A DNA stretch of 64,000 nucleotides, from contig JAQULK010000001.1 in NCBI GenBank assembly GCA_028718635.1, positions 396,818-460,817 of the forward strand, written 5' to 3'. Within the stretch, counting starts at the first letter, position 1. Each line of letters begins with the position of its first letter. Positions 5,244 through 11,767 of the stretch are shown one piece after another. The notes under the pieces were generated by a model. It saw only the letters and a list, made by a program, of their open reading frames with translations, made no database searches and was not told where the DNA came from. The position numbers were made by a program, and so were the translations under genes. This DNA comes from Minisyncoccota bacterium (GTDB taxonomy: Bacteria; Patescibacteriota; Minisyncoccia; Phycocordibacterales; UBA9973).

Positions 5244-6095
5244 TTAATTTACATAATCTATTTCTTTTCCATTTTCTGGTATTATTTTTTTTATCACTAA
5301 TTTTTTATTTTCTAATTTAGCTTCGGTTATTTTTATTCTTTTGCCATTTTTTATGAAATATATACCCGGCCAGCCGTAAAGCGCGCAATATTTAGTGTAA
5401 ATTTCTTTTGGCGAATCATTTAACAAATCCACCAAACCATCTTCTTTTTTGATTTTTTCACAATAGGTTGCTTTAGATTCATCTTGAGGTTTTGGAGTTA
5501 TTTTTTCTTTTATATAATCCTCCAGTACTTTTACTAATAATTTTCCGCCTTCTCGAAAAAGTTTTTCTTCTAAAATAGGCAAAAGAGGAGGCCAATCCTT
5601 GTCATCTATTTCGACATTTTTTTGCGCCACGATCGGTCCATGATCCATTTTCTCATCTAAAATTATTACTGTTGCTCCAATATCTCTTTCATTGTTGAGT
5701 ATCGATGATCTTACAGGGGAAGGTCCGCGCAATCGAGGCAACATTGAGGGATGTACATTTAAAATTCCATGCTTCGGCATGTTTAGGATTTTTTGGGGCA
5801 GAATTTTTCCATAAGCAGTTAAGACAAAAACATCATATTCCATAAGCCCTGTCGGGTGTCCAACACCCGACAGGAAGTTTTCATCAATAACTTTAGGCTG
5901 GAGTGTCGGTATCCCATGAGCCTCTGCCCATTTTTTTACTGGCGGAGCTTCAAAATGGTGACCTCGTCCGATTTTTAAGTCTGGGGCAGTTACCACAAGA
6001 GAAGGGAAATATCCATCTTCTGCAAGTTCTTCTAATACATACACAGCCAAGTCTGGTGTTCCAAAGAATACAAATTTTAAGTTTTTGTTTTGCAT
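5244..6095 (-). CDS. fmt: Methionyl-tRNA formyltransferase
   Basis: 'FFGTPDLAV..L..L......VVTAPD...GRG.....PVK..A..HGIP' N-terminal formyltransferase domain plus a C-terminal domain. Start probably at the internal Met (MQNKNLKF). Confidence 0.85.
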   Translation of the reverse strand: MQNKNLKFVFFGTPDLAVYVLEELAEDGYFPSLVVTAPDLKIGRGHHFEAPPVKKWAEAHGIPTLQPKVIDENFLSGVGHPTGLMEYDVFVLTAYGKILPQKILNMPKHGILNVHPSMLPRLRGPSPVRSSILNNERDIGATVIILDEKMDHGPIVAQKNVEIDDKDWPPLLPILEEKLFREGGKLLVKVLEDYIKEKITPKPQDESKATYCEKIKKEDGLVDLLNDSPKEIYTKYCALYGWPGIYFIKNGKRIKITEAKLENKKLVIKKIIPENGKEIDYVN

Positions 6096-6099
6096 AAAT

Positions 6100-6921
6100 T
6101 TATAAGCTATCAAATGGGCTTTTAATATTTTTTATCGCAGGATTGGTTACTTTTGTGTATAATTGTGTGGTTCTGATATTGGCGTGGCCTAAAAGCTCTT
6201 GCACATAACGCACGTCCACACCATTTTCCAAAAGGTGAGTGGCAAAACTATGACGAAGTGAGTGAAAAGTAGCTTCTTTATTAATATTGCATTTTTTTAA
6301 AGCGTTTTCAAAAATCTTTTGTGCGGTTCTTTCTGTTAATTTGCCGCCACGTTCACTAGCAAAAACATAGTCATTTAAATTTCTTCCAGTTATTGATTTT
6401 TCAATTTTTTTACTTAGTTTTTTCGGGAAAATAGTAATTCTATCTTTGTTGCCTTTTGCCCCTTTGATATGAATAGTTAATTCTGCTAAATTTAAGTCTT
6501 TAATTTTTAAATTTGTTGTTTCACTGACCCTGAATCCGGAAGCATATGATAGAGAAATTAATAGTTGATGTTTTTCATTACTTATTGAATCAATAATTTT
6601 TTCAATTTCATTTCTTGACAATACGATTGGCAATTTACTCGGTGTTTTTGCAAATTTAATGTCAATTTTATTATGAAACTTTAGTACATTCCAACAGAAA
6701 AAATTAATAGCTTGTAAGCTTTGATTGATGGTTTGCGAAGACATTTTTTTATCAATTTTTGACAATAAATATCGCTTAATAAAATCAACATCTACCGAAT
6801 CAAAATTGTTTTGCTTAGTACGCAAATATTCAGCTACACAGCCCACGTAACTTTTAATAGTTTTAGGACTATAATTTCTGAGTTTTAGCTCGTCTTCTAG
6901 TTTTTTTAAATATACTTTCAT
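6100..6921 (-). CDS. Tyrosine site-specific recombinase (XerC/XerD / phage-integrase family)
   Basis: 'HSLRHSFATHLLENGVDVRYVQELLGHANIRTTQLYTKV' carries the R-H-R-Y catalytic box. N-terminal SAM-like core-binding domain. Confidence 0.85.
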   Translation of the reverse strand: MKVYLKKLEDELKLRNYSPKTIKSYVGCVAEYLRTKQNNFDSVDVDFIKRYLLSKIDKKMSSQTINQSLQAINFFCWNVLKFHNKIDIKFAKTPSKLPIVLSRNEIEKIIDSISNEKHQLLISLSYASGFRVSETTNLKIKDLNLAELTIHIKGAKGNKDRITIFPKKLSKKIEKSITGRNLNDYVFASERGGKLTERTAQKIFENALKKCNINKEATFHSLRHSFATHLLENGVDVRYVQELLGHANIRTTQLYTKVTNPAIKNIKSPFDSL

Positions 6922-7164
6922 TTATTTATTTGTTATAATTAAACTAATATAAATATACACAATAGTCGTAAAAAGTGCAATATTATACATACTATACGAA
7001 AACACTTCGTATATAAACGAGTTAGGCGAAATAATTTTTTTCTCTCTTTTAGAAATGTTTCCTTCTGGTCTTCTTTTTTTGAATAAGGAATGCAAAATAA
7101 GATTTTCTTTTTATTTTATAGAGGGGAATAAGGTGTTTTCTTCCGCTACGCTACAGAAAACGGA

Positions 7165-7214
7165 TTTTTTATATAAGTAAGAAAAAGCCCCAAATGGTTA
7201 TACCACCGGGGCTT
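7165..7214 (-). terminator. Intrinsic terminator downstream of the GC-rich islet gene 7280..8473
   Basis: Minus-strand hairpin aagcccc-N14-ggggctt followed by a T-run. Confidence 0.6.
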
Positions 7215-7279
7215 GAGTGAACTTGAAAGAACTATTTTACTCCCTGATTCGGCAGAGAGCTTACCGACCGCGATGGTTA

Positions 7280-8473
7280 TTAGGATTTGCCGACTGCATC
7301 CAACGCGTGTTTCAACGTTTTTTGGATGCACATAAATTGGCTAATCCCTTTTTCCCAGCAATCTGGGTTAGGGACCGAAACTTCCCTATTTCCGAATTTG
7401 CCTCTTTTTTCCTCCATTACTTTTTGAATCTCGGGATCCCTTCTCTGCTCAGCAGAGAGGTCTTGATAGTAATGAAGGATGATTTGAGGTTTGTCGCTCG
7501 CTCCGATCGCCTCCACCATTAATCTGGTGTTTTTTTTGAGGTAATCGCACGAGGGACATGCAACGTTGAGCATGTCGGGCTGCTGTCTGACCGCCCTTGA
7601 CATAATGTCAAGGCTGTCAAGCACTTCCTTTGACCCAGCAATAAGCCAATGTGGGCCCTCTTCATGCTCGAACATCGCCTCAATCACATCAGAATCCTTC
7701 TGCAGTTCAGGAGTAATTCCGACGTAATTGTTGGTTGCCAAGCTGATCGCCGCAAGGGCAACATCCTTGTCGCCTTTCAACCGTTCGGAGATAAAGCACA
7801 TGTGAGAATTCAAGGCTTCAACTCTCTTCTCGATCAGCCCGAGAACAAACTCCTTGTCATCCGCCATTTCAGGCAGCAGATGCTCTTCGCAAAATGCCCC
7901 TGGATTCTCAAGGAGGTACTTTTTTATCGCCTCGGCATCCCCGACAATTTCATCAGGAAGACAACTGCCGTGATCTACCTCAGTCGAGAAACCTCCCTCT
8001 TTCAGAAGGTCCACAACCGCGGCGTAACCATCGACTTCACCATGGCCGATGATCTGGAGAAAAACCGGGATAGGGATGCAGTTTTCGTCCTCGGTGCCAC
8101 GATTGACCCAGAGGAGATCATAGTAGGTATCTCCATCACACGATCTCCGTTCGTAGGAAATCTCATTGACACCAAAAAGAGTACCGAAGAAATCTCTGTT
8201 CTTATCTTCGTACTCCGCCTCACAGCCGTCAAAATTCAATCTGTCAAATATCATTTTCTTTTCTCCTTCTTTCAGAATTTTTGCCCGCAACTGCCGGAAT
8301 TGCTTCGCGACAGAAGTCGGGATGAGGTTTTGAGCGACAAGATTCTCAAGCCCGTCTTGAAGCGTCTTGAAAACTTTTTTGGCCTGGCCTTGCTCAAGGG
8401 TCAGGACTCCTCGCACCAACTGCTCAACCGTTAGCTCCGAGGACAAACTCCCGGTGCCGTCCATTTGGTCCAT
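7280..8473 (-). CDS. Hypothetical protein with DUF4116-like repeats, in a GC-rich islet
   Basis: Repeats 'DKEFVLGLIEK', 'DKDVALAAISL', 'DSDVIEAMFE' and 'DPEIQKVMEE'. Strong SD AAGGAGG 7 nt upstream of the ATG at 8473 (the ORF-caller start at 8575 is rejected). GC visibly higher than flanks. Confidence 0.6.
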   Translation of the reverse strand: MDQMDGTGSLSSELTVEQLVRGVLTLEQGQAKKVFKTLQDGLENLVAQNLIPTSVAKQFRQLRAKILKEGEKKMIFDRLNFDGCEAEYEDKNRDFFGTLFGVNEISYERRSCDGDTYYDLLWVNRGTEDENCIPIPVFLQIIGHGEVDGYAAVVDLLKEGGFSTEVDHGSCLPDEIVGDAEAIKKYLLENPGAFCEEHLLPEMADDKEFVLGLIEKRVEALNSHMCFISERLKGDKDVALAAISLATNNYVGITPELQKDSDVIEAMFEHEEGPHWLIAGSKEVLDSLDIMSRAVRQQPDMLNVACPSCDYLKKNTRLMVEAIGASDKPQIILHYYQDLSAEQRRDPEIQKVMEEKRGKFGNREVSVPNPDCWEKGISQFMCIQKTLKHALDAVGKS

Positions 8474-8551
8474 AGCGGATCCTCCTTTTTGGAATTTTAC
8501 TACTGTCCCGCCATCTGGTCGGTAATTCCGCTTATGCGGAAAATAGCTTGC

Positions 8552-8603
8552 TACGAAGTAGCAATAAAATGGCAAAAAATTGCCGTCTTATTGCTACTTC
8601 GTA
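8552..8603. promoter_or_regulatory. Long perfect hairpin/palindrome (16-bp arms, nested 5-bp inner hairpin) ~80 nt upstream of the islet gene
   Basis: tacgaagtagcaataa ... ggcaa-aaaa-ttgcc ... ttattgctacttcgta. No T-tract on either side, so it is not a terminator. Possible operator or 5' leader structure. Confidence 0.4.
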
Positions 8604-8730
8604 ATCCATTATTCAGTTTTCAAAGTGCTGTCAATTTTGATTTTTCAGTATAGCACCTTTTCAATAATCTGTCAATAGTAATATCGTAAAATGGCTTATT
8701 TTGGCTAAATAATCCAAAAAGCAACAAGGA

Positions 8731-8785
8731 GTTTTGGGCTTTGGGCATTCACCTCTTTAATTCCCCTCTGCCCAAAGCCCAAAAC
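8731..8785. repeat. 17-bp perfect inverted repeat (gttttgggctttgggca / tgcccaaagcccaaaac) with a 21-nt loop
   Basis: Seen directly. Lies in the non-coding spacer of the islet. Confidence 0.5.
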
Positions 8786-9007
8786 GGAAAATCTTATTTT
8801 GCTCTATATTATATAAAAGAAGACCAGAAGGAAACGAATAATAAGGATGAGAAAAAATTACATCGCCTAACAAGTTGTATCAGGTTCCAGAAATTCGCCT
8901 CAATTATCTTCCAAAGGAGTGCAAATTTCTTCCACCCAAATTTTTGCCTTCTTCTTTCTTTTATATTACACTAAGGAAAGAAGGCAAAAACTTCTGATAC
9001 AACTAAC

Positions 9008-9033
9008 GTTGTCTGAAATGACGAAAAACAAAA
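9008..9033. repeat. Left 26-bp terminal inverted repeat bracketing the small islet gene
   Basis: gttgtctgaaatgacgaaaaacaaaa. The partner at 9595..9620 matches 24 of 26 in inverted orientation. Confidence 0.55.
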
Positions 9034-9054
9034 AATGCAAAGTTATTTTTGGAA

Positions 9055-9098
9055 ATTTTTAAAAACAAAAAAAGGAGGGCAACAAAATGAAGCCCTCC
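9055..9098 (-). terminator. Intrinsic terminator of gene 9122..9457
   Basis: Minus-strand ggagggc-N11-gccctcc followed by TTTTTTTTGTTTTT. Confidence 0.7.
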
Positions 9099-9121
9099 GA
9101 AGTGTGCGTTAAAAAACGCTG

Positions 9122-9457
9122 TTAAATATCTTTGACATACAACCTGAATCCGCCGCCACCCCACGCCGACCACTGCTCAAGGCTGATTGTCCTTTCGGGG
9201 CTTATTACATCCTTGAGTTCCTCGATGTCGGCCTGGTCAAGCTCGGCACTGAACTCGCCAGGAAAGTCACATTTGGGGTGTTTGAACACGATTTTATTGC
9301 CCTCAAATGCGATGTCGGCGGTTCCGTCCCTAAACAGTGCCTTCGGAAATGACGCGCAAAAATCGATTGACTCCGTGTGTGGTTTTGCGCTCAGCTTAAC
9401 GCCGTTTATTCTTCCTGCATCATTCTTTGTTACCTCAACGTCAATCTCGTAGTTCAT
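9122..9457 (-). CDS. Hypothetical 111-aa protein, GC-rich islet cargo
   Basis: SD AGAGGAGG 6 nt upstream of the ATG at 9457. No recognisable motifs (ends SAWGGGGFRLYVKDI). Confidence 0.5.
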   Translation of the reverse strand: MNYEIDVEVTKNDAGRINGVKLSAKPHTESIDFCASFPKALFRDGTADIAFEGNKIVFKHPKCDFPGEFSAELDQADIEELKDVISPERTISLEQWSAWGGGGFRLYVKDI

Positions 9458-9594
9458 GGCCGCCTCCTCTTTTGGATTGTTTTTAAAAATTTCCAAAAAT
9501 AACTTGGAAATCGATGTGGTTAGATGTCGTTACTACCTTTAAAGAACTTCAAAGTAGTATACAGATTGTAGCGAAAATGTCAATATCGATTTCC

Positions 9595-9620
9595 TTTTGT
9601 TTTTCGTCACATCAGACAAC
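9595..9620. repeat. Right 26-bp terminal inverted repeat (partner of 9008..9033)
   Basis: ttttgtttttcgtcacatcagacaac. Confidence 0.55.
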
Positions 9621-9660
9621 ACAGCACATGCGGTTCAGAAATTTCTCATTTAAAGAGAAA

Positions 9661-9676
9661 GGGGTCAGGTACCTTT
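9661..9676. repeat. REP-like sequence, left flank of the RAYT
   Basis: ggggtcaggtaccttt. Its inverse complement occurs twice at the 3' flank. Confidence 0.6.
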
Positions 9677-9703
9677 AATTTAAAAATATGATATAATAAA
9701 AAA

Positions 9704-10375
9704 ATGCCACGTTCACCACGAGTCGATGTTGGAAATGAGTTATACCATGTGATCAACCGTGCTAATGCTCGTTTACCTATTTTCTTCAAAGAAGAAGATT
9801 TTGAACTTTTTGTTTCTATTTTAGAAGATGCACAAAAAAAATACGACATGAGAATTATTGCATATTGTTTAATGCCAAATCACTTTCATCTTGTTTTATA
9901 TCCAAGACAAGATAATGATTTGCAGAAATTTATGCAATGGGTAACACTTACTCACACTCAAAGATGGCACATCCATAACAAAACAATTGGTAGTGGACAT
10001 CTGTATCAAGGGAGATATAAATCTTTTTTAATAGAAGGGGATAAGCATCTTTTGTCTGTGATTCGTTATGTAGAACGCAATCCATTACGCGCAAAATTAG
10101 TTAAAAAAGCAGAGAATTGGAAATTTAACAGTTTGTCATATAGGCTTTTTAAAAATACTAATAAAAAACTTCTATCCAAATGGCCAATAGAAGAACCGAA
10201 AGATTATCTTTCTTTTGTAAATACACCGCAAACAAATTTTGAAGAGGAAAGTATTAGAATACCAATAATTAAAAGTAACCCATTTGGAAGCATTGATTGG
10301 TCGATTAAAACTATTAAAAAATTTGGTCTTGAATCAACAATTAGACAAAAAGGAAGACCTAGAAAAGGTACCTGA
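9704..10375 (+). CDS. REP-associated tyrosine transposase (RAYT; IS200/IS605-family Y1 transposase-like)
   Basis: 'YHVINRANARLPIF', 'IIAYCLMPNHFHLVLYP' (HUH motif) and 'GHLYQGRYKSFLIEGDKHLLSVIRYVERNPLRAKLV' (catalytic Y). The stop lies inside the 3' REP. Confidence 0.8.
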   Translation: MPRSPRVDVGNELYHVINRANARLPIFFKEEDFELFVSILEDAQKKYDMRIIAYCLMPNHFHLVLYPRQDNDLQKFMQWVTLTHTQRWHIHNKTIGSGHLYQGRYKSFLIEGDKHLLSVIRYVERNPLRAKLVKKAENWKFNSLSYRLFKNTNKKLLSKWPIEEPKDYLSFVNTPQTNFEEESIRIPIIKSNPFGSIDWSIKTIKKFGLESTIRQKGRPRKGT

Positions 10376-10419
10376 CCCCTTTTATTCCTAGAAAAGGTAC
10401 CTGACCCCTTTTATTCCTT
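10364..10419. repeat. Two tandem 28-bp REP copies (aaaaggtacctgaccccttttattcc x2), inverted relative to 9661..9676
   Basis: Direct tandem duplication seen in the sequence. Only two copies and no spacer periodicity, so not CRISPR. Confidence 0.6.
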
Positions 10420-10423
10420 TTAT

Positions 10424-10744
10424 TTGGTTACAAGAGAAAAAGGGGAATTCTCAGGTTGTTGGGAGACGCCTGGGGGACATATAGAACAGGGAGAAACACC
10501 AGAAGAGGCACTCATCAGAGAAGTCAAGGAAGAAGCAGGAGTTGATGTAAGAATTATAAAATTTTTAGGCATTTTTGAAAACAACAATAGTATTTGTAAT
10601 TATTTTGATTGTGAATTAGTGTCACCTAGGCAAATTGAGGGAAATAATCAAATAAGATTAATTTCCGTTAATGATATTTCAAAATATACAATAACACCAT
10701 TTGCCCTTGAGAATTTAATCAAGCTAGGGCTTTATAAAAAGTAA
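10424..10744 (+). CDS. NUDIX hydrolase, apparently N-terminally truncated (TTG start abutting the REP)
   Basis: Nudix box 'GGHIEQGETPEEALIREVKEEAGV'. Only ~15 aa precede the box, where ~35 would be expected. Confidence 0.6.
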   Translation: MVTREKGEFSGCWETPGGHIEQGETPEEALIREVKEEAGVDVRIIKFLGIFENNNSICNYFDCELVSPRQIEGNNQIRLISVNDISKYTITPFALENLIKLGLYKK

Positions 10745-10771
10745 ATGTAAAATATATGACGAATAGTTAGT

Positions 10772-11224
10772 TTATAGTTCCAACCTTAGATAATCTCTCC
10801 CATTTACCTCATCGAGTTCTTCACTAAATCCTTCTTTAAGTAAAAATTCTTCACCTTCTTCAGTGTCAGCAATTGCAGTGATATATTCGCAATTGTTTTT
10901 TGTAGCAATATTCTTGAGTTCCAAAATTAAATTTTTCATTACACCCCCACCTTGTGATTCTTTTTTAGTTAACATTATGCCGATAGAAAGATATTGCATA
11001 CCTTTTTCATCTTTATTAATGACATAGCTAATCATTCCCTCGATTTCATTGTCTTTGTTTCTCTTTTCTATAACATCCATTCCTTCTAACCCACTATTTA
11101 TGAGTTCATCCATTTTATAATTGCTTTTTTTCTGAGGATAGTTTTCTTTAACAAAACGCTCTCTTTCTACAAAAAGAATTTTGTCATCTTTTCTTTCATT
11201 TTTAATTTGATCAAAATTTGTCAT
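10772..11224 (-). CDS. Putative GNAT-family acetyltransferase-like protein
   Basis: 'QGGGVMKNLILELKNIA...YITAIADTEEGEEFLLKEGF' resembles the GNAT acetyl-CoA-binding motif. Weak. Confidence 0.35.
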   Translation of the reverse strand: MTNFDQIKNERKDDKILFVERERFVKENYPQKKSNYKMDELINSGLEGMDVIEKRNKDNEIEGMISYVINKDEKGMQYLSIGIMLTKKESQGGGVMKNLILELKNIATKNNCEYITAIADTEEGEEFLLKEGFSEELDEVNGRDYLRLEL

Positions 11225-11233
11225 AGATTTTAG

Positions 11234-11767
11234 CTATCTAGGTAATTCTTCCCTTATGTCTTTTGCATGGTCGATAAAGAGTATGCCTTTTAGGTGGTCA
11301 GTCTCGTGTTGGAAGATCTGCGCCAAAAGACCCGAGGCGCCGCGAGTGAATTTTTTGCCATTTTCATCATAAGCTGTAACTGTTGCTTTTTTTGATCTAA
11401 AAGTATTCCCATAGAGCCATCTGACGGACAGACATCCTTCTGGCACCCACATTTTCTCACGGGAAAGTTTGGAAATTTTTGGATTGATAAAAATTAAATC
11501 TTTAGGGATTTCTTTTTTGTTAATTTCTTTTAATTCATCTTTTCCTCTTAAAAAATCTTTATGAAAAATTTTTCCAGAAACGACAAAAATTTGTAAATTA
11601 TATCCGATCTGCGGTGCCGCTATGGCCACGCCGTCATCTTGGCTCTTGAGAGCCGCAGACATTTCTTTTAAAACCTTTTTTATTTTAGGAGTTGTAATTT
11701 CTTTTACGGATATTTCTTTTGCTTGTTCGCGTAAAACTTTATTTTCTTTTTGAACTATTTTCTTCAT
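11234..11767 (-). CDS. def: Peptide deformylase
   Basis: 'GVAIAAPQIG', 'EGCLS' and 'QHETDHLKG' are the three Def motifs. Confidence 0.9.
   Translation of the reverse strand: MKKIVQKENKVLREQAKEISVKEITTPKIKKVLKEMSAALKSQDDGVAIAAPQIGYNLQIFVVSGKIFHKDFLRGKDELKEINKKEIPKDLIFINPKISKLSREKMWVPEGCLSVRWLYGNTFRSKKATVTAYDENGKKFTRGASGLLAQIFQHETDHLKGILFIDHAKDIREELPR

Follow-up and report, generated by a model that had tools for sequence, protein, structure and literature searches.

A compact one-gene element lies in a 64,000-nucleotide stretch of DNA from a Minisyncoccota bacterium of the Patescibacteria (contig JAQULK010000001.1, positions 396,818 to 460,817 of the forward strand), which we call the window. 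It consists of a gene for a protein related to the REP-associated tyrosine transposases (RAYTs; REP, repetitive extragenic palindrome), bounded by inverted repeats, and it directly abuts a Nudix gene that has lost its 5' end. The name TIRtron has been given to units in which terminal inverted repeats, and not REPs, flank a RAYT-like gene, and TIRYT to the enzyme encoded (Di Nocera 2013, PMC3733652). The element extends from about 9658 to 10411, with end duplications reaching 10424, and comprises, together with the adjoining gene, the following features (window positions, strand in brackets):

9658 to 9676 (+): left terminal inverted repeat, AAAGGGGTCAGGTACCTTT, of the GGGGWSAS class, complementary at 19 of 19 positions to both right copies
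9689 to 9697 (+): extended -10-like box TGaTATAAT, read from the sequence, 6 nt 5' of the ATG
9704 to 10375 (+): transposase gene, TIRYT/RAYT-like, Y1 HUH type; 223 aa, with H60/H62, Y122 and a basic C-terminal tail ending ...KGRPRKGT
10364 to 10382 (-): right terminal inverted repeat, which also supplies the transposase gene's final K-G-T codons and its TGA stop
10387 to 10415 (+): exact 29-nt tandem duplicate of 10358 to 10386, containing the second right repeat copy (10393 to 10411)
10416 to 10424 (+): 9-nt partial repeat CCTTTTATT, in which the last 5 nt of the inverted repeat and 4 nt of flank are repeated once more
10424 to 10744 (+): 5'-truncated Nudix (MutT-like) remnant of 106 codons, with a TTG start and an intact Nudix box

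The 223-aa protein is a RAYT-related single-tyrosine Y1/HUH enzyme. It scored 61 bits against Pfam Y1_Tnp (cutoff 23), fell marginally short of the equivalog cutoff of NCBIfam REP_Tyr_transpos (NF047646; 78.4 bits against 80) and remained well below that of transpos_IS200 (NF033573; 17 bits against 55). An earlier note, made from the letters of this DNA alone, had pointed to HUH and catalytic-tyrosine motifs, and both are borne out. H60-F-H62 aligned with the HUH motif of Escherichia coli TnpA-REP (PDB 4ER8), Y122 aligned with the catalytic Tyr115 of that structure within a Y-x-x-x-N-P helix motif, and neither the HUH motif nor Y122 varied among 47 homologues. An AlphaFold2 model of the protein (pLDDT 79.6, pTM 0.82) had 4ER8 as its top Foldseek match in the PDB (E 5e-9; TM 0.74, normalised by target length), with the TnpA structures of ISDra2 and IS608 ranking behind it (E 5e-6 to 1e-4). 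The sequence is 100% identical to that of a database protein (P0001) named by NCBI "transposase [Candidatus Pacebacteria bacterium]". The C-terminal 97 residues (127-223) gave no Pfam match even at E<=10, neither to a helix-turn-helix (HTH) nor to a DnaA_C domain; the full model placed three short helices at 168-206, and the region modelled alone was poorly predicted (pLDDT 62.6, pTM 0.28). The tail of the family, ...RGRP(K/R)KGT, may be AT-hook-like. No second Y1 open reading frame (ORF) was found in the window, and PADLOC returned no defence-system match for the transposase and its neighbours.

The flanking repeat had been described in the earlier note as 16 nt long, with one copy on the left and two inverted copies on the right. 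That arrangement holds, but the repeat is longer, at 19 nt, and perfect. The left copy sits 28 nt ahead of the ATG, and its GGGGTCAG (9661-9668) fits the GGGGWSAS motif exactly. On the right, the TGA stop at 10373-10375 falls within the first repeat copy, as had also been noticed. When the 16-mer was matched against the window with up to 3 mismatches, 3 copies were found where 0.22 were expected, and none of 100 shuffles reached 3. The TGaTATAAT box between left repeat and ATG suggests a putative promoter of the transposase gene's own, and the mRNA may be leaderless. A simple -35/-10 scan did not report this box and found no terminator, and an Rfam search of 8900-10900 gave sub-threshold chance matches only.

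The earlier note took these repeats for REPs. The locus would then be a classical REPtron, that is, a RAYT between genuine REP hairpins, copies of which are spread through the genome as REPINs (paired REP copies), and a simple insertion would have split the Nudix gene. The enzyme itself lends this some credit, as its score against REP_Tyr_transpos is near threshold and its best fold match is TnpA-REP, and inverted doublets of the repeat are frequent in Planctomycetota (see below). That the enzyme is RAYT-related is supported; that the repeats are REPs is not. Each repeat copy, folded as a single strand, forms a stem of only 5-6 bp (AAAGG/CCTTT) around a 9-nt loop, and the flanking repeats have neither a GTAG nor a CGTC head. 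By the usual definition, then, these repeats do not qualify as REPs. Repeats of the GGGGWSAS type have, moreover, been described as distinct from REPs (PMC3733652, PMC6006769). The window holds no other copy, the Nudix N-terminus does not lie across the element, and there is no target duplication. We therefore regard a REPtron as improbable here.

Comparison with known systems places the element more precisely. It resembles the REPtron of E. coli TnpA-REP in combining an HUH motif with a single catalytic tyrosine and YxxxNP, in having that protein as its best match in sequence and fold among solved structures, in placing the gene between inverted copies of a cognate sequence, and in the short inverted doublets found elsewhere. 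It differs in lacking the GTAG guide tetranucleotide and a stable imperfect palindrome, in a protein that is ~60 residues longer than TnpA-REP and narrowly misses the NCBIfam equivalog cutoff, and in a repeat population that is not visible in the 64-kb window. With IS200/IS605 elements (IS608, ISDra2) it shares the Y1 HUH fold, a compact one-gene layout and the lack of target duplication. The ends of IS200/IS605 elements, however, are subterminal hairpins in direct orientation, whereas those of the window element are perfect terminal inverted repeats.

The closest agreement is with TIRtrons, many of whose repeats share GGGGWSAS (PMC3733652, PMC6006769). Here, too, a RAYT-like Y1 gene lies between GGGGWSAS terminal inverted repeats, the 3' repeat overlaps the end of the gene, and some genomes additionally contain the repeats singly, as dimers or in clusters. 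We conclude that the locus is a TIRtron: the gene is RAYT-like, and it is bounded by terminal inverted repeats, not by REP hairpins. TIRYTs have been tentatively equated with subclass 2.1 of Quentin 2018 (PMC6006769), a subclass marked by a C-terminal helix-turn-helix domain resembling Bac_DnaA_C, HTH_23 or HTH_28. The window element may belong to this subclass. It differs from the described TIRtrons in its C-terminus, which has no HTH or DnaA_C match in Pfam and ends in basic ...RGRPxKGT, and in its host, a member of the Patescibacteria (candidate phyla radiation, CPR). TIRtrons are an already described kind of element, to which this locus adds a Patescibacteria example. Absent from Di Nocera 2013 (PMC3733652) and Quentin 2018 (PMC6006769) are the size of the family in Patescibacteria, the near-invariant 18-19-nt repeat across phyla and the truncated outer copies described below. 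A literature search found no paper linking RAYTs or REPINs with Patescibacteria, and one for the repeat sequence found unrelated primer and plasmid matches only.

The same unit of gene and repeats recurs in relatives. A word-indexed search found at least 7,925 homologues at E<=1e-10 among 8,000 scored candidates. When representatives of clusters formed at 50% identity were searched exhaustively, 543 clusters matched at E<=1e-30 and 12,559 at E<=1e-10. The best 120 homologues are 66-100% identical to the window protein, nearly all 220-227 aa long and named only from Patescibacteria. One full-length homologue cluster is named from Planctomycetota. Six homologues selected for the similarity of their proteins (70-86% identical) each have a neighbourhood unrelated to those of the others, and the genes beside them include type II secretion/LCAT genes, RHS-type toxin loci, recG and an aminotransferase. 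The core GGGTCAGGTACC was present at both ends of all six, with a single mismatch in one of these ends.

Homologous genes at 16 loci outside the window are flanked by this core. Pattern-based loci were chosen for one exact repeat copy; in four homologues only 51-55% identical to the window protein, the core was also found at the end not used for retrieval (with one mismatch in L061). Across the loci examined the left repeat lies 30-57 nt 5' of the ATG, and in 11 loci, which represent 10 distinct elements, the left end carries a TATAAT-like hexamer, usually with TG ahead of it, 6-8 nt 5' of the ATG. At the other end, 10 of 11 loci (one with one mismatch) read AAAGGTACCTGA, that is, K, G, T and stop, and the right end of the remaining one (L037) is rearranged. 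Many homologues sit on contigs of 800-1,500 nt that end at the repeats (e.g. L215), a pattern that repeats present in several copies in the sample would produce.

Dispersal of the repeat without the gene was followed by scanning a species-representative genome collection for AARGGGTCAGGTACCTTT. At least 120 stretches matched and were classed by record title; the counts given here are among the matches listed, none of which came from the genome of the window. Patescibacteria account for 44 stretches (Paceibacterota, Saccharibacteria, Nomura-, Moran-, Wolfe- and Taylorbacteria and others), Planctomycetota for 51 and other groups for 25 (Acidobacteriota, Gamma- and Betaproteobacteria, Bdellovibrionales, Clostridia, Ignavibacteria, Bacteroidota, Chloroflexota and Sumerlaeota). 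The copies are arranged as follows:

Patescibacteria: 46 single copies, 9 gene-sized pairs, 4 short doublets, 1 mid-sized pair
Planctomycetota: 44 single copies, 0 gene-sized pairs, 24 short doublets, 1 mid-sized pair
Other groups: 27 single copies, 1 gene-sized pair, 2 short doublets, 2 mid-sized pairs

A full Y1 gene between two inverted copies was present in about 10 of the listed matches, with proteins 51-80% identical to that of the window, while the remaining stretches hold single copies or inverted doublets 20-70 nt apart. A few matches are clearly due to chance and lie inside genes (e.g. L097, L122), and several genomes supply many contigs (e.g. CAZLBC01, CAYFJO01). Of the 62 listed Patescibacteria copies, only 6 fall well within an ORF of 120 aa or more, compared with 72% of random positions; the Patescibacteria copies are thus mostly extragenic. 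In one Parcubacteria locus (L104, 5892-6106), all that remains with two repeats 191 nt apart is the putative promoter with the ATG and the gene's 3' end, and this locus is an internal-deletion derivative of the full element. Fragments of the transposase gene adjoin repeats at two further loci (L030, L036). Given dispersed extragenic copies, deletion derivatives and contigs ending at repeats in relatives, the earlier notion that the enzyme mobilises a family of repeats holds for these elements in general; for the genome of the window it is not demonstrated.

A separate observation concerns the Planctomycetota doublets, which share a conserved spacer of ~35 nt, GTGCNAAGCACCC...GGGCCGTTCCGGCA, between the inverted copies (L029, L042, L094, L101, L102, L114-L117, L119 and L133). 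They come from several genomes, including one metagenome-assembled genome labelled Anaerolineaceae, and their shared spacer marks them as a distinct family of putative miniature elements.

These data bear on the possibility that the gene is a domesticated, immobile, single-copy RAYT-like host gene, whose repeats are autoregulatory or other host binding sites and beside which the Nudix truncation is an unrelated deletion. Such a gene would account for the one copy without extra repeats in 64 kb, for the strong conservation of length and sequence in the family and for a left repeat just upstream of the putative promoter, and RAYTs in general behave like housekeeping genes (PMC5581495). It does not sit well, however, with close homologues in six unrelated neighbourhoods, with the existence of internally deleted copies, doublets and extragenic single copies, with the many homologue contigs that end at repeats, or with a Nudix break that coincides with the end of the element. 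We consider domestication unlikely, if the most serious of the alternatives.

The Nudix remnant records what happened at this locus. Its Nudix box, GGHIEQGETPEEALIREVKEEAGV, fits GX5EX7REUXEEXGU, and it scored 60 bits against Pfam NUDIX, spanning profile positions 20-118 of 134, which falls short of a complete fold domain. An ORF starting at a TTG and lacking its N-terminus had been proposed, with a search for intact orthologues as the check, and this search yielded two. Residues 25-130 of the protein P0121 (131 aa) are 79% identical to the remnant, and the metagenome contig L134 matches at 83% DNA identity (L134 1061-1394 to window 10420-10751). Both orthologues carry 24 N-terminal residues that the remnant lacks. 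The remnant is thus like MutT-type Nudix proteins in its intact box and in being 79-80% identical to full-length orthologues, and differs in lacking the first 24 residues and an ATG. In MutT the first 24 residues hold the first beta-strand, which belongs to the core, and part of the second. The remnant has no internal stop or frameshift, and its ratio of nonsynonymous to synonymous substitution rates (dN/dS) against L134 is 0.14. It is probably a recent pseudogene, since it has neither an ATG nor an obvious ribosome-binding site. An exact look-up of the remnant returned no record.

Two observations on reading frames stand beside this. The Nudix remnant continues the frame of the transposase ORF, with just 16 sense codons and the TGA (10373-10375) between them, so that readthrough would yield a fusion protein; other genes of the window use TGA as a normal stop. 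In L134 (1-1000), a radical-SAM ORF (CxxxCxxC) runs in frame into the Nudix ORF without a stop, maybe as a fusion or with an overlapping start.

Homology to the orthologues begins at 10420-10424, directly 3' of the 9-nt stub, which puts the Nudix break no more than ~10 nt from the right end of the element. Of the claim that the element truncated the gene, the truncation and its position are therefore confirmed, whereas a simple insertion is not demonstrated. A tblastn search with the orthologue N-terminus found no match to the missing peptide, MDYSNKHPKTLASVAIINHGGKLL, at 9578-9660 or elsewhere in the window, and the radical-SAM ORF that lies 5' of the Nudix gene in L134 is absent from the window. 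Thus joining 9578-9660 to 10445, by which the gene was to have been rebuilt, does not rebuild it. The likeliest history is an insertion, or a recombination at a repeat, at codon 22-24, followed by an adjacent deletion or rearrangement that removed the upstream part.

The short upstream frame ending in ...FSFKEKG and the AAGAGAAA(AA)GGGG strings on both sides of the element, which had been proposed as a duplicated target, are indeed present in the sequence. The strings are ruled out as a target duplication. On the right, AAGAGAAA..GGGG is made of the conserved Nudix codons T-R-E-K-G, 22 nt from the repeat, and on the left the string is the start of the repeat consensus, AAAGGGG. We know of no Y1 enzyme that makes target duplications, from what is known of IS200/IS605.

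A wrongly joined contig could in principle mimic this junction: if the assembly had been misjoined at a repeat copy, transposase and Nudix remnant would not be truly adjacent. An independent Logan contig (L001) speaks to this point. It matches 8970-10387 base for base and stops at 10387, inside the 29-nt duplication, and repeats together with such a duplication do break short-read graphs. But the repeated sequence, at 19-29 nt, is shorter than usual assembly k-mers, L001 confirms the assembly up to the point where it stops, and the Nudix remnant would adjoin a repeat copy whether or not the contig is joined correctly. We hold a misjoin to be very improbable.

The ends of the element show a further regularity. 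Just outside many repeats, at many loci, lie truncated direct copies in which a few bases of flank are joined to the start of the repeat, as in the array gaataaaggggtcag gaataaaggggtcag gaataaaGGGGTCAGGTACC at L002. Of 39 truncated copies, 29 keep 6-8 nt of the core and so end after GGGTCA to GGGTCAGG. The right end in the window shows a like habit, with its 29-nt full unit followed by the 9-nt stub. These copies hint that strands may be broken and rejoined near GGGGTCAGG/TACC; slippage, or assembly error in arrays, are alternatives. Arrays of 4-6 direct repeat copies with truncated copies, on one side of the gene, were also observed (L002 9600-10000; L004 9760-10000; L066 3227-3396; L100 625-730). 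A scaffold gap lies within the L002 array, so that copy numbers there are uncertain, and for this reason the array differences between L002 and L004 were not used as evidence of activity.

Taken together, we favour the reading that the window holds an autonomous, or recently autonomous, TIRtron, whose enzyme recognises the repeats, nicks and rejoins DNA via Tyr122 and mobilises the complete element as well as short derivatives of it, with no duplication of the target; we put its probability at roughly 70%. In this mechanism the transposase gene would be driven by its own promoter just inside the left end. The enzyme would recognise its own repeats, probably on single-stranded DNA, where the inverted copies or the AAAGG/CCTTT foldback would pair, and would nick in or beside them through Tyr122 and an HUH-bound metal. 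By analogy with IS200/IS605 and REP/RAYT enzymes, both the full unit and its short non-autonomous derivatives would move without target duplication. At this locus the site of insertion or recombination would have been codon 22-24 of a Nudix gene of the mutT type, whose upstream part would then have been lost through an adjacent deletion or rearrangement in what is a variable stretch.

Several points weigh against this. For movement at the locus itself, no empty site and no second copy were found, and the 64-kb window contains no further repeat copy with 2-3 mismatches allowed. The foldback is weak, with a folding energy at the left end of -3.3 to -4.3 kcal/mol (z -1.0 to -1.8). Strong conservation of the family, at ~70% identity over the best 120 homologues and with constant length, fits a domesticated, vertically kept gene as well. 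Selection of loci for one exact repeat copy biases the estimates of repeat conservation. Some array and duplication differences between strains adjoin scaffold gaps and may be assembly noise. Finally, because the 5' part of the Nudix gene is missing, simple insertion is not demonstrated and the deletion may have another cause.

The surroundings of the element look like a variable island. The genes def (11234-11767, -) and fmt (5244-6113, -) lie ~5 kb apart, with a GNAT gene, the Nudix remnant, the TIRtron, two inverted-repeat cassettes of higher G+C and a tyrosine recombinase between them. The neighbouring features are:

6100 to 6921 (-): tyrosine recombinase, 273 aa, overlapping fmt
7016 to 8876: cassette 2, with a DUF4116 gene at 7280-8575 (-), whose G+C is 0.42-0.45 against ~0.36 around it; inverted repeats 7016-7085/8807-8876 (70 nt, 74%) and 7092-7112/8782-8802 (21 nt)
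9122 to 9496 (-): ORF of cassette 1, 124 aa, of higher G+C, without a Pfam or PADLOC match; the cassette adjoins the left side of the TIRtron, and its nested inverted repeats, 9040-9068/9477-9505 (29 nt, perfect) and 9008-9033/9595-9620 (26 nt, 2 mismatches), are unique in the window

The tyrosine recombinase might act on the inverted repeats of the cassettes.

TIRYT/TIRtron elements were named in 2013, and experimental study of them is lacking. The family described here offers a clean case in which to study the use of terminal inverted repeats by a single-strand HUH transposase, since it is very large in Patescibacteria, its repeat core stays constant down to ~50% protein identity, and extragenic single copies and doublets occur across phyla. 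For annotation, the lesson is that CPR "transposase" genes of this family have defined ends, which break assemblies and can truncate neighbouring genes. More tentatively, and we think this somewhat doubtful, AAAGGGGTCAGGTACCTTT may be the cognate site of one currently active multi-phylum TIRYT clade that keeps single copies and doublets as REPIN-like populations even in streamlined Patescibacteria, with the outer copies marking the nick near GGGGTCAGG/TACC. If true, this would open a first way into the mechanism by which TIRYTs transpose, and it would show genes being eroded by such an element in a minimal genome.

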